IMG/VR virus record: IMGVR_UViG_2568526312_000023
Length of the DNA stretch: 12,038 nucleotides
Strand: one strand, 5' to 3'
DNA from: a virus
Taxonomy: Duplodnaviria > Heunggongvirae > Uroviricota > Caudoviricetes
Positions 15 through 12,038 of this stretch are shown in pieces (the first letter of the stretch is position 1; every line of letters begins with the position of its first letter). The position numbers and the translations under genes are program-made. Below the pieces are notes generated by a model. It did no database searches. It was not told where the DNA came from and was given only the letters and a program-made list of their open reading frames with translations.

Positions 15-1676
15 TCACACCCCGCTAAATTCTTCCAGTTTCTGGCGGTGGCTGTCGCTTATATCAAAAGCAAAATCCTCATGCTCTGCCTGGAATGTAC
101 CAAACGCCATCAGCGCCGCCACGCTCGGGTCTATCTTGTTCGGTGATTTTTTCTTGTTCGGCTTGATATTGGCGTTCGCGTCACTCTGCATCACGACGTT
201 ACTCATCGACCAGGACAACACCGGATCGCCACGATGCACAATCACCCTGCGGTTAACAAAAACTTCGAACGATTTCGCCGCCGGACTGAATCTGAGGTAG
301 GTTTGCGGGAACGGCTCCACCTCAAAACCTGCCCCCTGTAATTGCGTTCTGAGATGCGTGGCGTTCCACGTATCAAAGCCCACCAGCCTGATATTAAATT
401 TCTCCGCGTCCTGCATGATGTCATCTCTGATCCGGTCGTAATCAATGCAGTCGCCAGGTGTTGTGCGTATCCAGCCTGCTTTAGCCCACTGACGATAGAC
501 AGCGCGGTTTTTATTGGCGGGGTTCTGTAGCTGGAACTCCGGCAGATAATGACGGGAAACCAGCATAATGGTTTTACCTACCGGAAAGGCATAGCACACG
601 CTGGAAATATCGCTTGTGGATGATAAATCCAGCCCCGCGTAACACTCCTGGCCGTGTAAATCTTCCTCCGTGAACGTTCCGGCACACTCAGCCCATGCGC
701 CGTTACCCATCCACGGGGTAGTCCCCTGACACCAGATATTAAATCGCTTTGTCATCATCTCCACCCACTGCGACGGAATACCCCGCGCTTTCTGGATGGT
801 TGAGGCCAGTTTTTCACGATCCACGGAAACATCAATATTAGGGTTCGCCTTTATCCACATCGCCGGATCATCAACCTCGTTTTCGTCGTCCAGTTCGTAA
901 ATCAGTACAAAAATTGAATCGTTAACCTCTTCGCCGTCCAGGATCTGGCAGCAATAATCATAGTGCTGCTTACAGGCTGAAACGACGTTGCTGCCTGATG
1001 TGGTAATGGCAAATAACAGCCCTTCGGGACGTGCGCCCATCCCCAGCTCAAGCGCGGAATAAACGCCGTTATCGGGGTGCAAGTGGTATTCGTCCACGAT
1101 GGAAAGGCTGGGGTTTGTTCCCTCGATGGTTGCCGCTTTTGCTGCCAGCGGCTTTAACAGGCTGTTGCTTTTCGGGTGTATCACCTTATGCGCCTGAATA
1201 TTCACCCGCCTGCGTAACGGTCGGGATAAAAGGCACATCTGACGCGCATCATCAAAGACGATCCGCGCCTGGTCACGGCTCACCGCTGCGGTGTAGATAT
1301 CCTGCTGACCGTTCTCCATAATCAGAAACCAGTTAGCCAGAATCGCGGCGGTCGTGGATTTCGCATTTTTGCGCGGCACTTCGATAAAGGCGCTCGTATA
1401 TTTGCGCCGTCCGGTGGCCTTAACCTTAAAGCCGAGGATGCACGCAAAGGCGAACTGCTGCCACGGCTCCAGCTCAATGGGTCTGCCACGCATCGGTCCT
1501 TTTACGTGCGGGCACACCCTGGAAAAGGCAATAAACCGCTCCACAACCTCACGATCGAACGTGTAAAGGGGGCTTTTAAGGTCCGAAAAGTACCGTTTAA
1601 CAGCCTGTTTTAACCGTTTACAGGCCGGAATTTTGCCCGTTTTTACGTCTTCTGCGTACTTATTCCAGGCGGTCAA
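15..1676 (-). CDS. terL: Terminase large subunit (TerL), HK97-like
   Basis: 553-aa ORF. N-terminal region resembles TerL ATPase domains (FIEVPRKNAKST Walker-A-like P-loop). Probable TTG start at 1674-1676 preceded by AGAGGA Shine-Dalgarno, overlapping the terS 3' end by 17 nt. Stop TGA at 15-17. Confidence 0.88.
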   Translation of the reverse strand: MTAWNKYAEDVKTGKIPACKRLKQAVKRYFSDLKSPLYTFDREVVERFIAFSRVCPHVKGPMRGRPIELEPWQQFAFACILGFKVKATGRRKYTSAFIEVPRKNAKSTTAAILANWFLIMENGQQDIYTAAVSRDQARIVFDDARQMCLLSRPLRRRVNIQAHKVIHPKSNSLLKPLAAKAATIEGTNPSLSIVDEYHLHPDNGVYSALELGMGARPEGLLFAITTSGSNVVSACKQHYDYCCQILDGEEVNDSIFVLIYELDDENEVDDPAMWIKANPNIDVSVDREKLASTIQKARGIPSQWVEMMTKRFNIWCQGTTPWMGNGAWAECAGTFTEEDLHGQECYAGLDLSSTSDISSVCYAFPVGKTIMLVSRHYLPEFQLQNPANKNRAVYRQWAKAGWIRTTPGDCIDYDRIRDDIMQDAEKFNIRLVGFDTWNATHLRTQLQGAGFEVEPFPQTYLRFSPAAKSFEVFVNRRVIVHRGDPVLSWSMSNVVMQSDANANIKPNKKKSPNKIDPSVAALMAFGTFQAEHEDFAFDISDSHRQKLEEFSGV

Positions 1677-2016
1677 GCTCGTCCTCTTCTTCTGTTTCCG
1701 GTGGATTTTTACGGCGGCTTATCGGGTCAAAACCGAGCAAGGAGGCCATTTTTATCATCACTCTTTCCGCGTCGGATTTCGCGCTTAATGCGGGGTTTCT
1801 GCTCTCTCCGCCCTGACTGTTAACAATGCTGAACCCGCGCGCCGCAAGGTCTGCGACGGCTTTCCGGTATATCGAGTAATTGACGCAATACAGTTCCAGA
1901 TTACTCCAGTCGGCGGGAGTCAGGTCACCCCGTTCCGCAAGCTGCCGCGATTTTTCCCGCCACTGCTTCACGGCGATATCATCCAGGTAGGCGGGGGCTT
2001 TCGGTGGTCTTGCCAT
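1660..2016 (-). CDS. terS: Terminase small subunit, P27 family
   Basis: 118 aa. The motif LTPADWSNLELYCVNYSIYRKA...GESRNPALSAKSDAERVMIKMASLLGFDP matches the phage P27-type TerS pattern as I recall it. ATG at 2014-2016 with a weak SD. Overlaps the terL start. Confidence 0.8.
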   Translation of the reverse strand: MARPPKAPAYLDDIAVKQWREKSRQLAERGDLTPADWSNLELYCVNYSIYRKAVADLAARGFSIVNSQGGESRNPALSAKSDAERVMIKMASLLGFDPISRRKNPPETEEEDELDRLE

Positions 2017-2139
2017 GCTTATTTTTTCGCCAGATTATTTTTCAAAAAATTCCCGTGCATAAAAATTTGAGGAGGCGTTCGGTTCTGGGCGGGGTCGGGT
2101 TCGTCCTGAAAACTCCCCCCACCCCGTCCGGCTGCCTCA

Positions 2140-2313
2140 TCAGCGATTGCGGAAACATTCCATAACCTCGCGGTCACGGTCGTTTAATCGCGTCGCTGTG
2201 ATGCGTTCTGCGCGTCCTGATGCTTTATCTTTATGCCCTGCTTCCTGTGCCTTCCATGCGTCACGCTGCCTTATAAGTCCACGGATAAGGCGGTTTTGTT
2301 CCCGCTCATTCAT
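2140..2313 (-). CDS. Hypothetical small basic protein (57 aa) in the HNH-terS gap
   Basis: In-frame ATG at 2311-2313 (alternative ATG at 2320-2322) within the 138-aa track ORF. Translation MNEREQNRLIRGLIRQRDAWKAQEAGHKDKASGRAERITATRLNDRDREVMECFRNR is charged and helix-like. Weak RBS. Start overlaps the HNH 3' end. Confidence 0.25.
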   Translation of the reverse strand: MNEREQNRLIRGLIRQRDAWKAQEAGHKDKASGRAERITATRLNDRDREVMECFRNR

Positions 2314-2746
2314 CAGCGCCATACATCCAGTTATTGCGGTTAGCGCCCCGTTCTTCCTCCTCACGGAATCCACCCGCAGCACGCTTGTTTTTTGTGGACG
2401 GATCAAGCCATTTCGTTTTCTGGTTATGACACGCCTGGCACAATGGCTGATGATTCCACTCAGGCCAGAAGAGAACATCATTACCGCCATCGATTGGGAT
2501 AATGTGATCCACCACCACGGCGGGCGTGTATATTCCTTTTTCCAGGCAATGCGCACATAACGGGTTTTTACTCAGATACATGGCGCGGTATTTCTCCCAC
2601 TGCCTCGTATACCCTCGCTCCCTGCTGCTGCCTCTCCGGCTGTCCTGCTGCTGGCGTGCGCTGCGTCTGTGCTCCTCACACTTGCCGGACTTCACGCGCC
2701 TGTTGCAGCCTGGTTCTGTACATCGTCTTAATGGTTGCCACGGCAT
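2306..2746 (-). CDS. HNH endonuclease (packaging-associated)
   Basis: 146 aa. N-terminal Cys cluster (CTEPGCNRRVKSGKCEEH) plus HNH core (GYTRQWEKYRAMYLSKNPLCAHCLEKG...VDHIIP...WNHQPLCQACHN). Sits immediately upstream of terS/terL, as in HK97-like cos packaging systems. ATG at 2744-2746 overlaps the upstream stop (TGATG). Confidence 0.85.
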   Translation of the reverse strand: MPWQPLRRCTEPGCNRRVKSGKCEEHRRSARQQQDSRRGSSRERGYTRQWEKYRAMYLSKNPLCAHCLEKGIYTPAVVVDHIIPIDGGNDVLFWPEWNHQPLCQACHNQKTKWLDPSTKNKRAAGGFREEEERGANRNNWMYGADE

Positions 2747-3039
2747 CAGTACACCCCCACATCACGGTAAGCCGTCCAGAGTGCGCCAATCGTCATGGGT
2801 ACGTGTGTTTTTGCGTTATCCGCGACAATCTGGCGATTTTCATACAGGTGAGCGATAAACATCATGCAGCCAATCTTTATGGCTGGCGTGAACTCCAGCC
2901 CGTCATCAAAGCGCCTGCCTATGTGTATCTGGCACGCCTCAAGCGATGCGGCAATGTATCCGCTGATTAACTGGTCTTCATCGTCGCCATCGATGCGGCA
3001 ATGGAGTTTCACTTCTTCCAGGGTGATAAGTTCTGTCAT
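2746..3039 (-). CDS. Head-tail connector protein, gp6-like
   Basis: 97 aa. N-terminus ITLEEVKLHCRIDGDDEDQLISGYIAASLEACQIHIGRRF resembles the gp6-like head-tail connector family pattern. ATGA overlap with the upstream gene. Confidence 0.72.
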   Translation of the reverse strand: MTELITLEEVKLHCRIDGDDEDQLISGYIAASLEACQIHIGRRFDDGLEFTPAIKIGCMMFIAHLYENRQIVADNAKTHVPMTIGALWTAYRDVGVY

Positions 3040-3374
3040 TTTTCCGCGCCCTCACTACAAAGAATTTCAAGGCGTGTCCTGGCGGCATCTGGCAGCGGTT
3101 GCCCGATGATATTCAGTACACGCCCCGCCAGCGGCCCCGTATTGACCTTTATCCGACTGGTGGCGTTGATGTCCTTCCGGTAGCGTATCCATATCCTTAC
3201 AGTTCCAGTCGCCAGCTCTGCACCTGATGAAATGGCCTCCTTGCTGCTGATCATGTTCACGCTTGCCCAGAGTGTGTGACCGTCCACCCACGTTTCGAGT
3301 ATTTCGCCCGTCATGGCTCTGGTCTGTTTCAGGGTCTGAATCGTTACCCTGTCACGCAGTCGCCCTATGTTCAT
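3036..3374 (-). CDS. Head closure / head-tail joining protein
   Basis: RDRVTIQ...W..LWASV...IWIRYRKDI...RI pattern typical of HK97 gp9-type head-tail joining proteins. Preferred start is ATG at 3372-3374 (ATGA overlap with the portal stop, AGGGAG upstream). The track ORF extends to 3416 with an alternative ATG. Confidence 0.72.
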   Translation of the reverse strand: MNIGRLRDRVTIQTLKQTRAMTGEILETWVDGHTLWASVNMISSKEAISSGAELATGTVRIWIRYRKDINATSRIKVNTGPLAGRVLNIIGQPLPDAARTRLEILCSEGAEK

Positions 3375-4582
3375 TCCGGTTTTTCTCCCTCGCTGATTTT
3401 TACTTCCTGTTTCCATGCCTGGCTGAACTCATCACCACCATCACGCGGTGACAGTCCTTCACGTTCGCGGGCTTCGTTCGGACACATAACGCCGGATTTG
3501 ATGCCGCGCTCATAGGTGGCAAAGCGTTCGCCAGGTGTGGCCCGTAACAGGTCCGCGCTGTCAAACTCCACCTGATACCGGATACCAGGTACAGGCGAGG
3601 CCACCAGCAGGGCGTTTTTTATCTGCTGCTCAAAGTTCGCCAGCCACGGGCGCATCGTCATGGTGAGAAATGCGCGGCTTGCCTCGCTGAAATTGCTGTA
3701 GGTGCTGTTGCTGTATTCCTGCAAAAAAATCGGCGAGACGTTGAACATTCGGGCGATGTCTTCAATGGTGAAGCGACGGGAGGCCAGCCATTCAGCATCC
3801 TGATTACTCATGCCCAGCTGCTGATAGCTCATACCCCCTTCAAGGATGGGCGTTTTTCCGGCGTTTCTGGCCCCTTTGTAGCGTTCCAGTGCGGCTAATG
3901 CCTGTTTGCCCTTCACGCCGTCCAGCCATTCGCCTGACGTGATAACCCCTGCCGCCATCATGCCATCACGCATCACGCTCGCGCCGTGGCGTTGTTGGGC
4001 CAGCCCAAGCCCCAGCGATTCGCGGCAAATGGTTACAGGTGAGCGCCCCATAAAACCGTCATCCGTGGAGTAACGAAGGTGGAGAACCTCCCACGGTAAA
4101 TAGTTGCGGGTGTTTCCGGTGTAAGCGTCAGTGATGCAGTAGCGCCAGTTGTGTTCTCCTGTCTGCTCCACGTTCACCGACTGCGGCGGGTAAGGATGTA
4201 AAGCCGCCGGAAAACCATCACGCCCCCACTGAATCACCGCGTAAGCATTACCGTTTAACAGGCAGTGGCGGATCATCATTCGCTTAAACTGGTAGGGAGT
4301 CTGCCACGCGTTCGGGCGCTCGTTGAGGATGTGATCGACCGGATGAGAATCAAGCCACTCTCGGGCCTCCTTCCCCTTCTCATTGCGTACCAGGTACAGG
4401 TAACACGGCATGGTAGCCACCGCCTCAGAGATGACCGTGACGGCGTTCATGACGGCGGGCAGTGATTCCGCTGTCCCCGATGATACGTACTCACCCGCCC
4501 CCGTGTTCGATGTGCCAGCCAGCGCCATAAACTCATCAAGCGTCATGCTGCGCTGCTCTTTTTTTCTTCTGAAAGGCCACAT
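3371..4582 (-). CDS. Portal protein, HK97 family
   Basis: 403 aa. Contains ESLPAVMNAVTVISEAVATMPCYLY and RRFTIEDIARMFNVSPIFLQ, which I recognise as HK97-type portal signatures. ATG at 4580-4582 preceded by GGGGGTG SD. Confidence 0.88.
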   Translation of the reverse strand: MWPFRRKKEQRSMTLDEFMALAGTSNTGAGEYVSSGTAESLPAVMNAVTVISEAVATMPCYLYLVRNEKGKEAREWLDSHPVDHILNERPNAWQTPYQFKRMMIRHCLLNGNAYAVIQWGRDGFPAALHPYPPQSVNVEQTGEHNWRYCITDAYTGNTRNYLPWEVLHLRYSTDDGFMGRSPVTICRESLGLGLAQQRHGASVMRDGMMAAGVITSGEWLDGVKGKQALAALERYKGARNAGKTPILEGGMSYQQLGMSNQDAEWLASRRFTIEDIARMFNVSPIFLQEYSNSTYSNFSEASRAFLTMTMRPWLANFEQQIKNALLVASPVPGIRYQVEFDSADLLRATPGERFATYERGIKSGVMCPNEAREREGLSPRDGGDEFSQAWKQEVKISEGEKPE

Positions 4583-4583
4583 A

Positions 4584-5141
4584 TCACACCCCCGCTAAAT
4601 CCGCCCACCAGCGGCGATTATCCGCACGAGGCATTTTTTCAGGGTGCTGCTCATACAGGGAACGGCGGGCCAGCTCCACGCCGGAATCAGGGTAAGCCGG
4701 TACGGATGTCACGGTAATTTCGTACAGTTCCGCTATCAGTACAGTACGCACACATGGATCGACTGTCGTATCCCATACATCCTTACGGGAACGAAAGCCA
4801 AAGCTCATGCCCGAGATGTCACCACGTTTAACCAGTTCGATAACGTCCCGCCCTGTGCTGGTATCCGGTGGGATCAGTTCAAAACGTAACCCTGTGTCAT
4901 CCTCTTCCAGTCTCAGCGTACCGGAACGGGTGCGCCCCAGTAACATGCTGTGGTCATGCTCATACAGGCCGCGAACGTCATTACCCACCGCAAGCCATTC
5001 AGTAAACGCCCCCCGCTGGAATTTTTCGTAAAATTCGCCCCATAGCAGTTCTGAAAGGTTATCCCAGCGAACAACGTAGCCCGTAAGCGTGTTGCTGCCG
5101 CTGGTGGTGATTTCCGATGACCGGATTTCCATACTCATCAT
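4584..5141 (-). CDS. Prohead maturation protease, HK97 family
   Basis: 185 aa. GYVVRWDNLSE...GAFTEWL...GLYEHDHSMLLGRT...DTSTGRDVIELVKRGDISGMSFGF matches the HK97 prohead protease family pattern. ATG at 5139-5141 with AGGTGA SD. Confidence 0.88.
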   Translation of the reverse strand: MMSMEIRSSEITTSGSNTLTGYVVRWDNLSELLWGEFYEKFQRGAFTEWLAVGNDVRGLYEHDHSMLLGRTRSGTLRLEEDDTGLRFELIPPDTSTGRDVIELVKRGDISGMSFGFRSRKDVWDTTVDPCVRTVLIAELYEITVTSVPAYPDSGVELARRSLYEQHPEKMPRADNRRWWADLAGV

Positions 5142-5164
5142 AATTTTTTCACCTGTAAAACAGA

Positions 5165-5186
5165 GAAGGGGCTTTTTAGCCCCTTC
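5165..5186 (-). terminator. GC-rich hairpin between capsid and protease genes (possible partial terminator/attenuator)
   Basis: Perfect 8-bp stem GAAGGGGC/GCCCCTTC with a 6-nt loop, 9 nt after the capsid stop. On the minus strand it is followed by CUCUGUUUUA, a U-containing but imperfect tract. Confidence 0.35.
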
Positions 5187-5195
5187 GGTGTGCTG

Positions 5196-6353
5196 TTAAT
5201 CGTCGTCCTGCGGCAGTTCCAGAATCTTTATAGCGTTCGAATCCACCACGCCACCGCCTAAATATTTCTGCGTGAAAATTTTGATAAAGCCCGGCTCTGT
5301 GAGGTTGTCCGGTCTGGTGCGAACACCTGTTTCGTGATCAACAATGTAGTAACCGCGTTTGAAGTCACCCAGGGCAATAACGTTATCAGGCATAAACTCC
5401 AGATATTCGACCGGAAGGCCCAGCAACGTATCAGGATCACCCGCCTGTAAACGGTCGCGCCAGATGTAATCACCGTTCGCGTTCTTCACCTTCTGGAGTT
5501 TTGCCGCCGTCGTGGAGTTAACCACCCAGACCGCGTTTTTGCGGTATTTTTTACGTAATGCAAATTTCAGGTCGATCAGCGGGTCCGCAGATGTCCACGC
5601 CAGAGATTCGGAAGGTTTAATTACCTGCAACGTACCAAAATCACGCTCTTTGTCGTTCTTCTCTGCACGGGGTACGGATAAAAAACCTTTTGCTTTTTTG
5701 TCACCGTCGCCCACAACCAGATCGCTTTCTTCGGTTTCCGTGAAGGTGTCGCCAATCTCGCCCGTCAGCCATGAAAGGATGTCCACATCGGAAAAATCCA
5801 CGATTTCCTGCGTGGTGCGCGGGTACGCATAGACCGGATACAGCTTAATGCTCACCTCGTTAATCTGCGGGGTGCTGGTCTGTTCGCGTGCCTTACCCTC
5901 TTCACCGTGGTTAACGGTCGCACCGCCAGCGGAAACAAGCTGCTTAAACTCGTTGCTGCTGATTTTCTTCACGGTACAGATGCGGCGCATGGTGGATTCA
6001 TCCGTCAGCATTCGCATGATTTCGGTGTTCAGTTCGGGGATAACGGTATAACCACCATCAGCGGGAACGCCTGTACTCAATGCGCGGGTTTCACCTGTCA
6101 GAATGTAGTGACGTAGTTCGGCGGGGTCAGTGGTCTGGCTGTTTTTGCCTGGTTTACTGCGCTCTTCGTCAGCAACGGCCTCAAGGCGGGAGATGTCTTT
6201 ATCGAGGGATTCAGCTTTAGCGCGTAATTCGTCAAATTTTGCGCCCTCAGCATCGTTAAGGCTGCGGTTTTCTTTTTCCGCGTTCTCCAGCATGTCGCGC
6301 ATCTGATTTTTAATGGCGGTTTTCTGCTGGCGTAATTCGATTATTCTCGGCAT
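5196..6353 (-). CDS. Major capsid protein, HK97 fold, with N-terminal coiled-coil delta (scaffold) domain
   Basis: About 385 aa from ATG at 6351-6353 (MPRIIELRQQK...). The first ~70 residues are a charged coiled-coil typical of a delta domain; the rest has HK97-like capsid character. The track ORF extends to a GTG at 6401, but that start would place a terminator-like hairpin inside the coding sequence. Confidence 0.88.
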   Translation of the reverse strand: MPRIIELRQQKTAIKNQMRDMLENAEKENRSLNDAEGAKFDELRAKAESLDKDISRLEAVADEERSKPGKNSQTTDPAELRHYILTGETRALSTGVPADGGYTVIPELNTEIMRMLTDESTMRRICTVKKISSNEFKQLVSAGGATVNHGEEGKAREQTSTPQINEVSIKLYPVYAYPRTTQEIVDFSDVDILSWLTGEIGDTFTETEESDLVVGDGDKKAKGFLSVPRAEKNDKERDFGTLQVIKPSESLAWTSADPLIDLKFALRKKYRKNAVWVVNSTTAAKLQKVKNANGDYIWRDRLQAGDPDTLLGLPVEYLEFMPDNVIALGDFKRGYYIVDHETGVRTRPDNLTEPGFIKIFTQKYLGGGVVDSNAIKILELPQDDD

Positions 6354-6390
6354 AAAAAAAGTCCTGAAGTTAAGTAAGGAACTCCAGGAC
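6354..6390 (-). terminator. Intrinsic-terminator-like hairpin abutting the capsid start codon
   Basis: Minus-strand RNA reads GUCCUGGAGUU-CCUUACUU-AACUUCAGGAC followed by UUUUUUU then AUG. The 11-bp stem has one G-U pair and an 8-nt loop. The capsid SD (AGGAC) lies in the 3' arm of the stem. Confidence 0.5.
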
Positions 6391-6442
6391 GCGGCAAACA
6401 CTCAACCGTTTTTCATAAGGAAATCAGCAATCGCACCGATCG

Positions 6443-6610: not shown

Positions 6611-6633
6611 ACAAAAAGCCGGATTGCTCCGGC
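6611..6633 (-). terminator. Putative rho-independent terminator after the PerC-like gene
   Basis: Minus-strand GCCGGA-GCAA-UCCGGC hairpin (6-bp GC-rich stem) followed by UUUUUGU, beginning 8 nt after the TAA stop at 6641-6643. Confidence 0.45.
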
Positions 6634-6640
6634 TGTGTGA

Positions 6641-6913
6641 TTATCTGTCCTGGTAATTTCGCCATATTTCATCACCAGCACCATCCATACCCATTTCGGC
6701 ATAAGTGCGATCGACCGCCTTTTTCAGGTCTCCGTAATTATCCGGCGGCTCCGGTGGCCTCTGTGCCTTCCTGGAACATTCCAGCCGTCGCATCGTAACC
6801 TGATGCCGTTCCTTGTCTGTCTCCACCAGTTGCATGACTTCACCCCATCGCGCCGACGCTCTCCGGTAAAAGCCTTTCGCCTCCAGTTCTTCCGCTATGC
6901 GGTCATGTACCAT
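6641..6913 (-). CDS. PerC-family-like small transcriptional activator (putative late-gene activator)
   Basis: 90 aa from ATG at 6911-6913 (GGGGTGGGGA SD). N-terminal DRIAEELEAKGFYRRASARWGEVMQ resembles the PerC/Pch family motif (..LE.KG.WRRAA.RW..) as I recall it. Located directly upstream of the head operon leader. Confidence 0.55.
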   Translation of the reverse strand: MVHDRIAEELEAKGFYRRASARWGEVMQLVETDKERHQVTMRRLECSRKAQRPPEPPDNYGDLKKAVDRTYAEMGMDGAGDEIWRNYQDR

Positions 6914-6925
6914 CGTCCCCACCCC

Positions 6926-7336
6926 TCAGAACGGAATATCATCACCGTAAGGGTCATCGCCTCCCGCTGGTGGCTGATTACCCTGTGTGCCTGTGGTCTT
7001 GCGTCGGCTCCCACCAGGACGTGCCGCACGGGCACTGATTACGCTGTCTGCAATAACCTGATAACCCTGCCGCGTTTCCCCGTTCTGTCCGGTCCACTGG
7101 CTGACCTGCATCGTGCCGGATACGCTGGCAACGTCGCCTTTTTGATGTTTAGCCAGGAAGTCGGCCTGCTTACCAAATGCGATGACCGATAGCCATAACG
7201 TCGCCTGTCCATCCTGTGCCTGGCTGCATGGCAGCGATACCGCCATACGCGCCAGCGTCATCGGTGTACCCTTGCTGGTCTGTTTTACCTGCGGGTCGTC
7301 CACCAGCCGCCCGTAAGCTGCAATTTGTGCTGTCAT
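6926..7336 (-). CDS. ssb: Single-stranded DNA-binding protein (SSB-like)
   Basis: 136 aa. Gly/Pro-rich linker and an acidic C-terminal tip ending DDPYGDDIPF, matching the canonical SSB C-terminal D-D-D-I-P-F tail. N-terminal region compatible with an OB fold. ATG at 7334-7336 with GAGGTG SD. Confidence 0.75.
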   Translation of the reverse strand: MTAQIAAYGRLVDDPQVKQTSKGTPMTLARMAVSLPCSQAQDGQATLWLSVIAFGKQADFLAKHQKGDVASVSGTMQVSQWTGQNGETRQGYQVIADSVISARAARPGGSRRKTTGTQGNQPPAGGDDPYGDDIPF

Positions 7337-7345
7337 ATTGCCACC

Positions 7346-7651
7346 TCAGTGAAGCGATCCGGCGTTATTCTTTTTCATCTCTTCCATCATTTTTTCAGTG
7401 AGCATTACGCACTGAAAACCCATGTTTTTGATGTCTACGGGTTTCATGCCTTTGTCAGTGGATATCACAGGCAGAATATCCTGATACACATCGCGGTCAG
7501 GGTAACTAAGCACACAAAGCGCCCATGATGCCACGGGTGAGGATCCTTCGTCTGTTTCAACCCACCAGCCTGGTGTAGCTGCGCTTATTTGCTGAATCGT
7601 GATCCGTCCGTTGTGCTTGTAAAGTTTTTCACCAAATTTTGGTTCGCTCAT
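7346..7651 (-). CDS. Hypothetical protein (101 aa)
   Basis: ORF with ATG at 7649-7651 forming an ATGA overlap with the upstream gene stop, in operon context. No motif recognised. Confidence 0.5.
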   Translation of the reverse strand: MSEPKFGEKLYKHNGRITIQQISAATPGWWVETDEGSSPVASWALCVLSYPDRDVYQDILPVISTDKGMKPVDIKNMGFQCVMLTEKMMEEMKKNNAGSLH

Positions 7652-7899
7652 GATTTCAACTCTCCGGTTTTAACGTTGATGGTTGTTACCTGTTCCGCTT
7701 CGGCAATCTCCCGTTCTGTCAACGTGGCAAAGTTTGCCGCTGCTGTGGTCATGAATGCGCTTATCAGGTCGGGATGTTCCTTCGCGTATCCTTCCCCTAC
7801 GTGTCGGTCTATCGTTCTGATTGCCACCTTTAAGGCCAGCTCTGTTATATCTAACGCTTTATATTTCGGCTCTGTTCTGTCTCTGCGTGTTCTGGTCAT
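7648..7899 (-). CDS. Hypothetical protein (83 aa)
   Basis: Preferred ATG at 7897-7899 with a strong GAGGTG SD 6 nt upstream. The track ORF extends to 7932 into the AT-rich/iteron region. No motif recognised. Confidence 0.55.
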   Translation of the reverse strand: MTRTRRDRTEPKYKALDITELALKVAIRTIDRHVGEGYAKEHPDLISAFMTTAAANFATLTEREIAEAEQVTTINVKTGELKS

Positions 7900-7932
7900 T
7901 TGCCACCTCAATTTATATATATATAGAAACAT

Positions 7933-8250
7933 GTGCGGGTTATGCGGGTTATTGGGTTATCTTAGCGTGCTAACCATTTTTTACCCTTTTATATCAGCAT
8001 GTTGCAAAACACCCTGTTTATTATTTGCTCACCACGTAACCCGCAAAACGCTCAAAATAACCCGCAAACGGGGTTTTTTCTGCGGGTTACGCATGACTGT
8101 CCGGTGTTACTTCAGTTATTCGCCTGCGGGTTATAATCGTGCTTTTGCGGGTTATAAATGCCCTTTTGCGGGTTACGTGCGGGTTATTGATTTCCTTTAT
8201 ATTCATGCACTTAATACACTTATACACAGGATAACCCGCATAACCCGCAA
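7933..8250. repeat. Iteron array, putative replication origin
   Basis: At least 11 copies of the 9-10 bp unit TGCGGGTTA(T/C) in both orientations. Forward copies at 7934, 7943, 8081, 8125, 8146, 8167, 8178; reverse copies (ATAACCCGCA) at 8037, 8057, 8231, 8241. Some pairs are spaced about 10 or 20-21 bp. They flank AT-rich tracts (7960-8030, 8190-8230) immediately downstream of the primase gene. Confidence 0.7.
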
Positions 8251-8271
8251 TTTTTTTCCTCACACAGGGGA

Positions 8272-10404
8272 TTAATCTTCATCATCAGGCTGGAACATCA
8301 GCACGTAAAAAACATGCTGCTTACCCCCAATCTTGCCCAGCGCCTTTTTTTTGTATCGGCGATCGCTTCCCTTCTCCAGCATTCCGGCAGCATCCAGGGC
8401 ACGCGCAAAATGCGCCGGATTAAATCCCTTCGCTATCTCACTCTCAAACACGTGCGGGAACGTGTAATAGCGCATCTCGTCATCTTCGTTGCGAATGCTC
8501 CCTTTTCTGTATCCGGCAAGCTCTTTAATCGGTAAATCACGCTCATCTGTATTGGGGTACGGAAGGTAGCGGCTAAACCCAAACGACGACAAAAACGCCT
8601 CAGCCTGTTCAACCATCTGTTTAAATTCCCTGTTACCCGTGCCGAACTCCTTCACCCAGGCATTAAAGTTATGCTGTATCGCGTCGCGGCATTCCTGCAC
8701 GACCCAGCCAGTTACATGACCGGAAAGCACAAGCGCGGCCTCCAGTATGGCGAAACGTTCACCCACGCGGTGGACCTGCTCGCCGTAACTCTCCGGTATC
8801 AGGTTGCGCCACCGTTCGCGGCATTCCCTTACCGTGTCCTTTGCCTCCTGCTGGTGGCCTGCCAGCCATTTAACCCACTCACGACCCGCCGCCCCGTGAT
8901 TTGCTGTCCAGGCATCCTTTAACGCGTCAGCATGTTCCTTACCGTTGCTGTATTCGTGAAATTTCGTGGCTTTTTCCATCGGAACGTTAAGCAGTCGGAC
9001 AAGCTGCCCCGCCTTAACTTTTATCCCCTCACTTTTGAGGAATGTCTCAACGTCCATTTCTCCGGTGCTGATTGCCACCGTTCGCCAGTGTTTGATCTCC
9101 CTGTTGCCGCCATCCTTCGCCCCCTGCAATTTCCCTGAACCGTTAAACAGCGTATAAGCAGACGTTGACACTTCCCGCGCATTTCCGGCCTGGCCTATCT
9201 CATCCAGTGGTAAAAGCCCGTCATTATGGGCCTCGGCCTCATTGGCAATACCTAACGCCGTGCCGTACCAGGTCAGCCGCTGCGCGTCCGGCTCTCCCCA
9301 TAAACTTGATGCGATGTTCTGCGTGGTGGTCTTACCTGCCGATGACTGTTCGAAAAGATGCACCCCGAAGCCGTCAGCACCCACAAGGCCAATTAAAGGC
9401 GCTGCCAGTGACGTTGCCACACCCAGTATCATTGAGGCATTACCGCCAGCCAGCCGCGCCACGCTGTCGCGCCAGCCATCCGCCGTGCCCGCCACGGAAT
9501 AACCGTTAATCGCGGCGCTTTTTCCGGTAAACAGGATCGGTTTTTCAGATTCACCAATGATCGAACCGTCCGGCATGATGTACGCGCCAAAATGCCAGCC
9601 CGTTGTTGTGCTTAACTGCCATTCCTCATGGCTTCCGCTTAACTGCATCCAGTCCGCCAGGATTGCCCTGTATTTGCCGTTGGTTGTCACGTTCAGCCCG
9701 TGATCTTTAAGTAACCGCCAGCCGTCACGGTCGCCGATACCACCACACGGGATCGCCATTGTGATGACTTCATGGTTTGCGGTTTTTTTCCAGCGCATCA
9801 CGCGGTAATGCTCTTTACCGATCGTCCCCGTTCCCAGTAGTTCAAGCGGAGAACATAACCACGTCTCAGGCCGGATAATTTCGCCTGACTGCTTATCCAC
9901 TTTGGGCGTTACCCAGAAAACACCATCGGCGCGACTTTCAACGCGTGGCTTTAATTCGTCATCGCTATGGCTTCCGGTATCTTTTTTCTTTACCGGAAAC
10001 TCAATAACCAGACCATCAGAAAGATTCTGCCGCTCACGGGCCAGATATTCGCGCCAGTTCTCCACCTTCTGACCGTGCATACCCTCAGGATAAAAATTTG
10101 CATCCTGTACACCAGCCGCCGCCAGCTTTTGACCAATCGCCTTGATCATTACTGGTGCAAGATGTCCGGCCCTGAATATGCGCACGGATTTTCTGCCTTC
10201 CGGCACAATTTGCAGCTTATCCAGTTCTGATAACTGCTGCTCCCCAAGCCACACAGGAGGCACATTATCGCCGGATGCGGGGCCGTCCTGCTCCTGCCAC
10301 TGTTTTGCATGTGCCCACGCATCACTACCCGCGAAAATAATCACCTCTGTGTCTTTGTGTTTTATTCCGCGTGGCTGTTTTTTTACGTTCGGTGCCAGTT
10401 TCAT
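8272..10404 (-). CDS. Primase/helicase-type replication initiator (satellite/P4-like pri-rep)
   Basis: 710 aa. Central P-loop-like motif GVHLFEQSSAGKTTTQ. Large size and position directly upstream of the iteron origin. ATG at 10402-10404 with ATGA overlap to the upstream ORF. Confidence 0.75.
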   Translation of the reverse strand: MKLAPNVKKQPRGIKHKDTEVIIFAGSDAWAHAKQWQEQDGPASGDNVPPVWLGEQQLSELDKLQIVPEGRKSVRIFRAGHLAPVMIKAIGQKLAAAGVQDANFYPEGMHGQKVENWREYLARERQNLSDGLVIEFPVKKKDTGSHSDDELKPRVESRADGVFWVTPKVDKQSGEIIRPETWLCSPLELLGTGTIGKEHYRVMRWKKTANHEVITMAIPCGGIGDRDGWRLLKDHGLNVTTNGKYRAILADWMQLSGSHEEWQLSTTTGWHFGAYIMPDGSIIGESEKPILFTGKSAAINGYSVAGTADGWRDSVARLAGGNASMILGVATSLAAPLIGLVGADGFGVHLFEQSSAGKTTTQNIASSLWGEPDAQRLTWYGTALGIANEAEAHNDGLLPLDEIGQAGNAREVSTSAYTLFNGSGKLQGAKDGGNREIKHWRTVAISTGEMDVETFLKSEGIKVKAGQLVRLLNVPMEKATKFHEYSNGKEHADALKDAWTANHGAAGREWVKWLAGHQQEAKDTVRECRERWRNLIPESYGEQVHRVGERFAILEAALVLSGHVTGWVVQECRDAIQHNFNAWVKEFGTGNREFKQMVEQAEAFLSSFGFSRYLPYPNTDERDLPIKELAGYRKGSIRNEDDEMRYYTFPHVFESEIAKGFNPAHFARALDAAGMLEKGSDRRYKKKALGKIGGKQHVFYVLMFQPDDED

Positions 10405-10700
10405 TTTTTACCCCTGAATACGTTAAGCATCTTTTTTATTTCCTGAATATTGGCGCGTGCTTTCTCCCTGCTGGTTGGTTTACTGCGGGGCGCTGCCTGT
10501 ACCAGAGAAAAATCACGCCGGAACTGATAAACAGGCATCACGCAATCATATTCGTAGCCTTCACGATGGTAGGTTACGCGCCGTTCCTCCACGCCCTTAA
10601 TCATTACCGTGCCGCCGTACTTATCGCGGTAAATATCCCCGCACATGAATTTAGTGCGAGTTTTGCCGCTGGCAGTTAAGCCAGAATATTTAAGTTTCAT
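10401..10700 (-). CDS. Hypothetical protein (99 aa), translationally coupled to the primase gene
   Basis: ATG at 10698-10700 with GGAG upstream. Stop overlaps the primase ATG (ATGA). Basic C-terminus. No motif recognised. Confidence 0.55.
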   Translation of the reverse strand: MKLKYSGLTASGKTRTKFMCGDIYRDKYGGTVMIKGVEERRVTYHREGYEYDCVMPVYQFRRDFSLVQAAPRSKPTSREKARANIQEIKKMLNVFRGKK

Positions 10701-10705
10701 TATTT

Positions 10706-10966
10706 TTATTCTCCGATAGCGTGACCTGATAAGCCGTTAATCTTCTCTGATGTGCTCTCTATTTTGCTGGTTGAACTATCCAGTAATTCAGAAACGGCTA
10801 ATATTAATCTTGCGGTTGATTCATCGCGTTCATTATTCGCCAGCGACTGAAGCCACATGTTCATTACTTCGTTCGCTGCGTTGTTTAAAGATATTGCGCT
10901 GTTGGCAAGGCTTCTTAATTCACTGGTCGCCAGTTTGTTATTGTTCATAGCGTTTAAATCTCTCAT
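10706..10966 (-). CDS. Hypothetical Asn/Ser-rich small protein
   Basis: ORF in a visibly AT-rich patch. Starts at ATG 10964-10966 or ATG 10946-10948 (the latter overlaps the upstream stop). Composition is atypical for the rest of the element. Confidence 0.4.
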   Translation of the reverse strand: MRDLNAMNNNKLATSELRSLANSAISLNNAANEVMNMWLQSLANNERDESTARLILAVSELLDSSTSKIESTSEKINGLSGHAIGE

Positions 10967-11129
10967 CAATTAACCACAGCGCAACACTTCCAGAAAGTTT
11001 TGCCAGAAGGCCAGCTAATGCGGATATATCACCATCATTTAATTTATCAGGGTATACCTCAAGAAGGCGGCAAATAATTTCTGTCTGGTGCGCACGTTCA
11101 GCGGCTTCGTGTAATGTAATTTCCTTCAT
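10938..11129 (-). CDS. Hypothetical protein (63 aa)
   Basis: ATG at 11127-11129 overlapping the upstream stop by 1 nt (TAATG), indicating translational coupling. No motif recognised. Confidence 0.45.
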   Translation of the reverse strand: MKEITLHEAAERAHQTEIICRLLEVYPDKLNDGDISALAGLLAKLSGSVALWLIDERFKRYEQ

Positions 11130-11314
11130 TAATGCACCTCTTTTAATTCATACACTGCTGAAATAATGACTTGTGATAAGCCATATTCTGATGATTCGCT
11201 TCTCACCGCAGCAATAGCCGTCTGAACATTAACAGCCTTCACATTCTGAGCGATACCAATTGTGTGGCCTAGTGGGTTAACAGCGCTGGCAAATACACGG
11301 AAGGTTTTAAGCAT
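11129..11314 (-). CDS. Hypothetical protein (61 aa)
   Basis: ATG at 11312-11314 embedded in the upstream gene's 3' end (ATGCTTAA overlap). No motif recognised. Confidence 0.45.
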   Translation of the reverse strand: MLKTFRVFASAVNPLGHTIGIAQNVKAVNVQTAIAAVRSESSEYGLSQVIISAVYELKEVH

Positions 11315-11507
11315 GGCACACCCCCTGACGAATACGAGCGGCGAATACCATCACGCAGCCAGCCGGAGATTGCTGGCGCGCTTCCTGTTCGCTGGTGGCC
11401 TCGATGGTAATCACGCGCGGCTGTGCCGTGCTCAGGGCGATAAAACGCCAGATGTATTTATTCAGGTTGTGCGAGTCCCGCCCTTGCGGGTGTGTGGTAT
11501 GATTTCT
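11307..11507 (-). CDS. Icd-like protein (P4 Icd-type cell-division-inhibitor family)
   Basis: 66 aa from ATG at 11505-11507 (GAGGT SD). YIWRFIALSTAQPRVITIEATSEQEARQQSPAGCVMVFAARI matches the Icd-like pattern (FIW.F.A...P....I.A.SE.EAR.....FAARxP) as I recall it. First gene after the operator-bearing promoter. Confidence 0.55.
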   Translation of the reverse strand, partial: RNHTTHPQGRDSHNLNKYIWRFIALSTAQPRVITIEATSEQEARQQSPAGCVMVFAARIRQGVCHA

Positions 11508-11607
11508 CATAGCTACCTCGATACTTTCGCTATCGTTGGTTGTTAGACGCCCTGCATGTGTTGCGAGCACTGTAGGGCGTTGCTTAATTTGAGTGACAAA
11601 ACTCAAA

Positions 11608-11690
11608 CTGTGCGCACAGATTAAAATCATGTGTGCGCACATGTCAATACTTAACATCTCATTTTTTTTGCTGTATTGTGTGCGCCCATA
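11608..11690. promoter_or_regulatory. Divergent promoter region with three TGTGCGCACA-type operator palindromes
   Basis: Perfect 10-bp palindrome TGTGCGCACA at 11609-11618 and 11632-11641, and a degenerate copy TGTGCGCCCA at 11679-11688. Minus-strand promoter candidate: -35 TTGACA (11642-11647), 16-nt spacer containing the second palindrome, -10 TTTAAT (11620-11625) adjoining the first. The third copy lies 28 nt upstream of the ribbon-helix-helix gene start. Confidence 0.55.
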
Positions 11691-11715
11691 AAGTCCATTT
11701 AAGTGAGGTGCATCA

Positions 11716-11913
11716 ATGTCTAGCGGTAACACAAACAACAAATCAGCAAAGAAAAATATTCGATTCCCACATGAGCTTATAGATGGGATTGATGCCAGCG
11801 TTGAACAAGAAAAATTAACTAATCCTAGTGCTAATTTTTCCGCATGGGTCTTAGATGCCTGTGGACGCAAATTAAAATATGAACAGCGCCGCAAGGCCAA
11901 AGAGCAGGAATAG
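11716..11913 (+). CDS. Arc/Mnt-like ribbon-helix-helix DNA-binding protein (putative repressor)
   Basis: 65 aa. Strong SD GAGGTG 5 nt upstream of the ATG. KNIRFPHELIDGIDASVEQEKL...NFSAWVLDA fits the Arc motif N-[LI]-R-[WF]-P-x-E-[LV]. Divergent from the early operon. Confidence 0.7.
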   Translation: MSSGNTNNKSAKKNIRFPHELIDGIDASVEQEKLTNPSANFSAWVLDACGRKLKYEQRRKAKEQE

Positions 11914-12001
11914 TCCACCAGCAAGCCAGCACACTGAGCACATTGCCCACCAGACAGCAAATCGCTATGATGTTCTGGCTTATGTTTAGTGTTTTCCCAT
12001 T

Positions 12002-12030
12002 GGCGACCGCCACAGGTCGCCTTTGTTTTA
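12002..12030 (+). terminator. Putative rho-independent terminator downstream of the ribbon-helix-helix gene
   Basis: GGCGACC-GCCACA-GGTCGCC hairpin (7-bp stem) followed by TTTGTTTTA on the plus strand. Confidence 0.45.
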
Positions 12031-12038
12031 TGTGTCAT

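Follow-up and report, generated by a model that had tools for sequence, protein, structure and literature searches.

The 12,038-nt stretch of viral DNA analyzed here (IMG/VR record IMGVR_UViG_2568526312_000023, Caudoviricetes), to which we refer as the window, carries a compact set of head and DNA-packaging genes, transcribed in the order capsid, protease, portal, head closure protein Hc1, head-tail adaptor Ad1, HNH endonuclease, a conserved 60-aa open reading frame (orf60), small terminase (terS) and large terminase (terL). All long open reading frames (ORFs) of the window lie on the minus strand. Gene identities were assigned with Pfam profiles at the curated cut-off, with support from PHROGs, and the eight packaging proteins match in both (Table 1). 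A preliminary description of the window had recognized a block of capsid, protease and portal genes at 3371-6353, and both limits are exact: read on the minus strand, the capsid ATG begins at 6353 and the portal stop codon ends at 3371. The two databases also agree with its naming of all three genes, and homology searches bear out the 401-aa capsid and the 403-aa portal in particular. An exchange of these two identities, which would make the 401-aa protein the portal and restore a canonical order, was ruled out by Pfam and PHROGs. We assign the region, with high confidence, to a capsid-forming phage-inducible chromosomal island (cf-PICI) of the EcCIEDL933 type, in whose packaging operon it makes up the half for head morphogenesis, and we find that its capsid-first gene order is fixed throughout the proteobacterial cf-PICI clade.

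Gene order was scored by tblastn with the window proteins, a locus being scorable when capsid, protease and portal were all detectable. The satellite set comprised 160 loci with a capsid identity of at least 56%, from Enterobacterales, Orbales and Pasteurellales, plus nine further satellite loci; the control set held 80 loci whose capsid belongs to the nearest true-phage type, and 74 of these could be scored. Capsid, protease and portal follow one another in that order in 159 of 159 scorable satellite loci, succeeded by (Hc1), Ad1, HNH, (orf60), terS and terL, whereas portal, protease, capsid is the order in all 74 phage loci and the window arrangement occurs in none of them. In HK97 itself terS and terL come first, followed by portal, protease, capsid, Ad1 and Hc1, and HNH closes the genome at its right end; the contrast with HK97 drawn in the preliminary description is therefore sound. 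In HK97 gene numbers (1, terS; 2, terL; 3, portal; 4, protease; 5, capsid; 6, Ad1; 7, Hc1; 74, HNH) the satellite order reads 5-4-3-7-6-74-x-1-2. The connector pair is also exchanged, since Hc1 precedes Ad1 in the window and follows it in HK97, YeP1 and VW-6S. The best four capsid and portal matches in the phage database (59-66% and 62-81% identity, respectively) are satellite-type records with the capsid upstream of the portal, three of them no longer than 16.5 kb and the fourth a 106.5-kb Klebsiella record with the module at one end. All other phage-database records have a capsid identity of at most 40%, and the two that we examined in detail, YeP1 and VW-6S, show the canonical order. Since the scored loci are related by descent, the shared order probably represents one ancestral rearrangement that was retained, and not many independent events.

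The head genes had initially been called inverted. Their order is indeed permuted, but the rearrangement is a permutation of genes on one strand and not an inversion of DNA, because every gene shares its strand with terS and terL. A pure circular permutation was also considered and rejected: it accounts for the position of HNH, the cohesive-end site (cos), terS and terL, but not for capsid before protease before portal or for Hc1 before Ad1. In the paper that founded the group, capsid, protease, portal and connectors, then hnh-terS-terL, are given as the order conserved in Proteobacteria, phage and PICI packaging modules are said to "have different genetic organisations", and transfer is reported to be lost when any one of the module genes is mutated (10.1101/2022.09.08.507074). 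Later work used the module as a search criterion and reported a 240-subunit capsid and cohesive cos ends (10.1101/2025.02.11.637232). The observation on gene order is thus correct but not new, being already published as a hallmark of the cf-PICIs of E. coli and its relatives.

The surroundings of the window could be read from two longer copies. Contig L174, which is 99.99% identical to the window over 10.7 kb, presents host rcnR, an integrase (PF00589, phrog_1), a 257-aa gene and AlpA (PF05930), followed by the genes of the window. In the copy of E. coli strain 10671 (L001, 97.9% identity), the island is bordered by two perfect direct repeats of 70 nt, which lie 15,847 bp apart; the integrase is just within one of them, and host thiM and rcnR are outside, one on each side. 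The element is 15.85 kb long, and a single small gene stands between terL and the attachment (att) repeat with its host DNA. A PICI-type module for replication and regulation is confirmed by the integrase and AlpA in L174 and by the DUF927 primase (phrog_1139), SSB and 243-aa repressor-like protein in the window. Among the ORFs of the element, several of which are small and have no assigned function, no match to a tail or lysis family was found in Pfam or PHROGs; tail genes, holin and endolysin are the components that SatelliteFinder treats as "forbidden" for a cf-PICI (PMC10085698). Every sequence-level feature by which the founding papers and SatelliteFinder define a cf-PICI is present. Among 5,426 complete E. 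coli genomes, 548 contain the packaging module; the O157:H7 copies are 96-97% identical to the window.

The island of about 15.8 kb thus holds, in this order, integrase, AlpA, primase and other replication genes, PerC, capsid, protease, portal, Hc1, Ad1, HNH, orf60, the putative cos, terS and terL. A helper phage would induce it through AlpA, a step shown for the prototype in the cited papers and extended here by identity to the O157:H7 copies. Again by the example of the prototype, the island's own proteins would then form small capsids of 240 capsid-protein subunits, its DNA would be packaged from its own cos by its own HNH, TerS and TerL, and the filled heads would be finished with tails of the helper phage.

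A likely place for cos is the 123-nt gap between orf60 and terS, exact cut position aside. This gap contains a G-run (2113-2125), a C-rich box (2087-2099), the sequence CTCAAATTTTTATGC (2057-2071) and an A/T-rich tract (2035-2053), and the same layout of G-run, C-rich box, CA(A/G)ATTTTTATGC and A/T-rich tract is common to E. coli, Klebsiella-type and Pasteurella elements. The vB_KppS-Ant record, which is linear and comes from an induced lysate, starts at terS and ends past HNH and a small ORF, and compared with an integrated relative it is without 68 nt of exactly this gap. HK97 and YeP1 show the same motif layout at their real genome ends; a comparison of the HK97 cos junction with the gap in the window gave no significant similarity of nucleotides, and the layout alone is shared. 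The HNH endonuclease, a packaging accessory of HK97-type cos phages, adjoins the putative cos and in the circular form stands directly upstream of terS and terL, a gene arrangement as in HK97. If this placement of cos holds, terS and terL would lie at the left end of the packaged DNA, as they do in HK97. The preliminary description was right that terS and terL come after HNH, but their "distal" location is not a rearrangement: the series HNH, gap, terS, terL is canonical, and the terminase genes appear distal because the coordinates are those of the integrated form. Cohesive ends have been reported for islands of the EcCIEDL933 type, with the site unmapped in the cited papers (10.1101/2025.02.11.637232). 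The final gene before the putative cos, orf60, is annotated as a gene in relatives and was detected in about 57 related loci; it does not figure in the published list of eight module genes.

The capsid gene differs in one respect from what was first proposed. Its identity stands, but the length of 401 aa is that of the longest ORF, read from a GTG at 6401, and the likely start is the ATG at 6353, which gives 385 aa and agrees with the calls of PGAP and other gene callers in relatives. In close relatives, one additional T in the T-run before this ATG (a T8 variant) puts the upstream GTG out of frame. The protein has a charged N-terminal delta domain of 92 residues, followed at residue 93 by the maturation motif STGVPAD (SxGxxAD); an SxGxxAD cleavage motif has been described in the capsid protein of EcCIEDL933 (10.1101/2025.02.11.637232). 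Junctions between the genes of the operon are tightly packed, being mostly ATGA or TGATG overlaps or 1-nt spacers, with overlaps of 17 nt between HNH and orf60 and between terS and terL, and only two non-coding gaps interrupt the series, one of 54 nt between capsid and protease and the 123-nt gap described above. From this packing we infer that all nine genes are transcribed together as a single, tightly coupled unit. Its last member, terL, has both an ATPase and a nuclease domain, and its stop codon adjoins the ATG of another small ORF, which starts at window base 13 and leaves the window at its low end; in L001 a 93-aa gene with a match to phrog_1561 is annotated at this place.

Table 1. Features of the window, with positions in the whole stretch and the basis for each assignment.
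Feature	Position	Strand	Basis and remarks
Large terminase terL, 553 aa	15-1676	-	PF03354 + PF20441; phrog_9 E=1.7e-179; TTG start, overlaps terS by 17 nt
Small terminase terS, P27 / Terminase_4 type	1660-2016	-	PF05119 E=1.3e-23; phrog_83
Putative cos region	2017-2139		conserved motif layout; break of the vB_KppS-Ant record
Conserved 60-aa ORF (orf60), no assigned function	2140-2322	-	phrog_3173 E=5e-34; overlaps HNH end by 17 nt
HNH endonuclease	2306-2746	-	PF01844; phrog_144 E=7.6e-43
Head-tail adaptor Ad1, HK97 gp6-like	2746-3039	-	PF05135 E=2e-12; phrog_40; ATGA overlap with Hc1
Head closure protein Hc1, HK97 gp7-like	3036-3374	-	PF05521 E=5.6e-23; phrog_25; ATGA overlap with portal stop
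Portal protein, 403 aa	3371-4582	-	PF04860 Phage_portal E=2.5e-90; phrog_12; start 1 nt past protease stop
Prohead serine protease S78, HK97 gp4-like, 185 aa	4584-5141	-	PF04586 Peptidase_S78 E=4.4e-46; phrog_80
Post-capsid hairpin, GC-rich, 9 bp, GAAGGGGCU/AGCCCCUUC, then U-rich tract	5165-5186	-	top terminator-scan match
Major capsid protein, HK97 fold, 385 aa	5196-6353	-	PF05065 Phage_capsid E=2e-61; phrog_10
Pre-ATG hairpin, 11 bp (6361-6390), and seven-T run (6354-6360) adjoining the capsid ATG	6354-6390	-	terminator-like match
Terminator-like hairpin directly past perC	6617-6634	-	dG -14.4 kcal/mol, z = -3.55
PerC-family transcriptional activator	6641-6913	-	PF06069 E=1e-43; annotated in L001
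Replication/regulation module	6926-12038	-	243-aa repressor-like protein, small ORFs, DUF4222, DUF927 primase, two small ORFs, SSB
SSB	6926-7336	-	
DUF927 primase	8272-10404	-	
Repressor-like protein, 243 aa	11307-12038	-	

Two hairpins flank the capsid gene, and a third lies further upstream. The one that follows the capsid gene, in the 54-nt gap before the protease gene, looks like an intrinsic terminator (dG -19.5 kcal/mol, z = -4.5), and none of 200 shuffled sequences folds as well. A strict terminator-like motif was found in 72 of 116 unique satellite gaps (62%), compared with 2.9 in shuffles (about 2.5%). Judged by eye, the folds include some kind of hairpin in about 100 of 112 unique gaps, and at least six stem sequences unrelated to one another occur. 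Canonical-order phages also carry a post-capsid hairpin, including 21 of 63 unique phage-clade sequences (33%), YeP1 and VW-6S, and in HK97 a "putative terminator" is annotated after the capsid gene. Because it is present after the capsid gene in true phages of canonical order, the post-capsid hairpin was inherited with the capsid gene and not made by the new order. In some Xenorhabdus-type relatives the hairpin is missing and the order is kept. The hairpin before the capsid ATG (dG -16 kcal/mol, z = -4.8) holds in its 3' arm the only Shine-Dalgarno-like AGGA. Of 84 unique leaders, 61 have a stem of at least 7 bp beside the ATG (shuffles, 13.6 +/- 2.7; an upstream control region, 34 of 101), and the 7-bp stems of other lineages occupy the same position with unrelated sequences. 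This enrichment is suggestive; the control region is itself rich in hairpins, and the sequences are related. The terminator-like hairpin past perC divides the replication and regulation genes from the packaging operon.

Why the order has been kept can be explained in two ways. We lean slightly towards the first, that the order is a neutral, frozen accident of the ancestral acquisition of head genes and has no consequence for expression. One arrangement throughout the clade fits a single ancestral event, and the overlapping start and stop codons make later reshuffling unlikely. Moreover, other cf-PICI clades differ in order: in Firmicutes the operon begins with portal-protease-capsid or with HNH-terS-terL, and three independent cf-PICI origins have been inferred (10.1101/2022.09.08.507074). 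On the other hand, the order has been kept without exception across three bacterial orders and down to 56% capsid identity, and neutrality and selection are indistinguishable by sequence alone.

The second explanation, which we regard as unlikely although worth weighing, takes up the different transcriptional and stoichiometric logic suggested in the preliminary description. It holds that the capsid-first order is adaptive, in that placing the most abundant protein first and a partial terminator after it would create a descending gradient of expression that fits the stoichiometry of assembly, from capsid through protease and then portal and connectors to terminase. A short satellite operon might need such a gradient if the antiterminated polymerase of the helper does not read it. 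The gene order does fit a falling copy number (240 capsid subunits, 12 portal subunits, catalytic amounts of terminase), the only gap among the morphogenetic genes carries the strong GC hairpin with its U-rich tract, this hairpin is kept clade-wide with diverse stems and far above the shuffled expectation, and all genes downstream of it are translationally coupled. However, phages of canonical order have this hairpin after their capsid gene as well, and the Xenorhabdus-type relatives without it have the same order. Furthermore, because Firmicutes cf-PICIs work with other orders (10.1101/2022.09.08.507074), the order is not needed for the lifestyle.

Two further alternatives concern the element itself. 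That the window belongs to a decayed and rearranged HK97-like prophage, now bereft of tail and lysis genes, and not to a satellite, is effectively refuted. It is true that the structural genes all have phage homologues and that a few E. coli copies carry insertion sequences (H78, H93). Nevertheless, the compact layout of about 15-17 kb recurs in about 160 loci in Enterobacterales, Orbales and Pasteurellales, the int-alpA-primase modules are of the PICI type and common to classical PICIs, the att repeats are perfect, and the capsid is at most 40% identical to that of any true phage. In addition, relatives have been recovered from induced lysates as genomes of 15-16.5 kb, and the prototype was mobile in experiments (10.1101/2022.09.08.507074). 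The element likewise shows none of the traits of a complete HK97-like temperate phage, namely tail and lysis modules, a length of about 40 kb and the canonical order. A simple DNA inversion or an assembly artefact has virtually no standing, since the order is "reversed" only superficially, all genes are co-directional with terS and terL, an inversion would have moved the genes to the other strand in the order Hc1-Ad1-capsid-protease-portal, and hundreds of independent complete genomes show the same arrangement.

Several points limit our reading of the region as part of a cf-PICI packaging operon. The likeness to the prototype was measured on other O157:H7 strains and not on the sequence of EDL933 itself, and induction, capsid size and tail hijacking are carried over from the prototype by analogy. 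The conservation of the order may reflect the mere difficulty of rearranging overlapping genes, and not selection. The hairpin and the seven Ts at the capsid ATG would sequester the likely ribosome binding site, which is hard to square with simple high expression of the capsid from a promoter close by. Finally, the capsid gene had been described as the first after the promoter, but a scan of the coding strand at threshold returned no sigma-70 consensus promoter upstream of it, where only weak candidates can be seen by eye. Taken as a whole, the interpretation offered in the preliminary description is partly supported. None of the evidence contradicts the identification of the element as a cf-PICI.

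It is tempting to propose that the capsid gene is bracketed by RNA structures that gate and grade the expression of a capsid-first operon, a speculative idea to which we give rather little credence. In this respect, the perC terminator, the roughly 220 nt that follow it and the pre-ATG hairpin recall the PR'-6S-tR' layout of lambdoid phages and may indicate antitermination or translational gating. Expression of the capsid operon could then depend on an antiterminator from a helper or a resident prophage. A search of Rfam matched no family anywhere in the window at E <= 1.

In sister lineages, we observed a leader of about 146 nt directly upstream of the capsid ATG (for example in L130, L124, L031, L096 and L166), which the window does not have. 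Its 58 distinct sequences share an invariant Box1 (GTGGCACTCAGACGTGAGCCGCCAC), a hairpin of 9-12 bp and an invariant Box2 (GCTGGTTTCACGTCTyAAC...GTTACGGAAACCAC), and Box1 AGACGTGA is complementary to Box2 TCACGTCT. The hairpin shows strong covariation, with 27 distinct stems and with compensatory pairs other than the commonest in 12-18 of the 58 sequences at four stem positions. Five related loci, searched against Rfam at the gathering threshold, yielded nothing for the leader; the sole match was the int-alpA RNA elsewhere in L130 (RF02996, 60 bits, at 1747-1814), and the equivalent int-alpA region of our element lies just outside the window. The leader was not found in true phages either, the phage database giving three satellite-type records only. 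We therefore rejected the idea that it is a regulatory signal shared with helper phages, since it occurs only in satellite-type records and is missing from the lineage of the window. We regard the Box1-hairpin-Box2 leader as a candidate for an element that regulates the capsid operon of cf-PICIs in cis.

Two neighboring features deserve mention. The perC gene stands directly upstream of the packaging operon; only 13 of the scored loci have such a gene ahead of the capsid gene. Outside the window, between the last gene and the att repeat of L001 (5167-5722), there are five copies of a 44-nt repeat with a small palindrome CCTCAAATTGAGG, which could be iterons or protein-binding sites.

As a variant copy of a known satellite with a published gene order, the window has low discovery value in itself, and what novelty remains lies in the putative regulatory structures around the capsid gene and in the uncatalogued leader of sister lineages. 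The comparison nevertheless yields a rule for annotation: the order capsid, protease, portal, Hc1, Ad1, HNH, terS, terL on one strand, downstream of int, alpA and primase, parted satellites from true phages without exception (159 and 74 scored loci). The hairpins flanking the capsid gene and the putative cos gap also offer sequence handles on how the operon is switched and how its protein ratios are set. If the hairpins or the leader prove to couple capsid production to the helper, this would amount to a novel form of cis-regulation in phage satellites.

Among known systems, the closest is EcCIEDL933, the prototype from E. coli O157:H7 (Alqurainy et al., 10.1101/2022.09.08.507074), which has the same gene content and order, with an int-alpA-primase part and the eight-gene module. 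Its size is reported as 15.4 kb, compared with 15.85 kb between the att repeats of L001, and neither has tail or lysis genes. Judged through the other O157:H7 copies, the window is a sequence variant of it at 96-98% identity and not an identical copy. The regulatory end of the window differs from that of the strain 10671 copy beyond position 11552, and relatives with the same packaging module differ in their replication modules (DUF927 or AAA_25) and occupy at least two chromosomal sites. Proteobacterial cf-PICIs as a group occur in about 13% of Enterobacteriaceae genomes according to SatelliteFinder.

The same module and order are found in vB_KppS-Ant (LR881103, 16.5 kb) and Pasteurella phage Pmp8 (OR544139, 15.3 kb), at 59-66% capsid identity, and in Salmonella S.Kent 1-2-1, a 3.8-kb fragment, the capsid upstream of the portal is the only order visible. 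All three are lysate-derived, come from other hosts and carry other accessory genes than the window; Ant and S.Kent 1-2-1 also have the Box1-hairpin-Box2 leader that the window lacks. They are evidently cf-PICIs deposited as phages. The GenBank "phage" records LR881103.1, OR544139.1, OR850982.1 and PQ569648.1 carry the satellite module and appear to be, or to contain, satellites. The Ant record gives the annotation "tail length tape measure protein" to the gene that follows terL, and the 106.5-kb Klebsiella record, with its module at one end, may be a mis-join.

The likeness to HK97 (NC_002167) and to HK97-like HNH/cos phages such as YeP1 and VW-6S extends to the HK97-fold capsid with its delta domain and SxGxxAD motif, the S78 protease, the portal, the connectors of gp6 and gp7 type, the P27-type terS, terL, the arrangement of HNH, putative cos, terS and terL, and the hairpin after the capsid gene. 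These phages differ in that portal-protease-capsid-Ad1-Hc1 follow directly after terL, whereas in the circular or packaged form of our element the block from capsid to Ad1 is parted from terL by the integrase and replication modules. They are also about 40 kb long, with genes for tail, lysis and the lysogeny switch, in contrast to the satellite of about 15.8 kb that has none of these and whose capsid is at most 40% identical to theirs. The two clades of Firmicutes cf-PICIs share the satellite lifestyle but start their operons differently.

Classical PICIs such as EcCICFT073 have in common with the island of the window the int, alpA and regulator module, including an identical 243-aa protein, but they have no portal, connector or terL genes, and it is the capsids of the helper that they remodel. 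The same 243-aa regulator, with integrase and AlpA at the same positions, recurs in islands with other cargo, namely L173 (14775-16664), L172 and L175. In one island of this type the cargo is a lone 629-aa ClpP-type protease/capsid fusion, portal and terminase being absent, and others carry a Terminase_2 terS and a 307-aa capsid-like gene. The cargo of L173, L172 and L175 illustrates the swapping of modules between classical PICIs and cf-PICIs.

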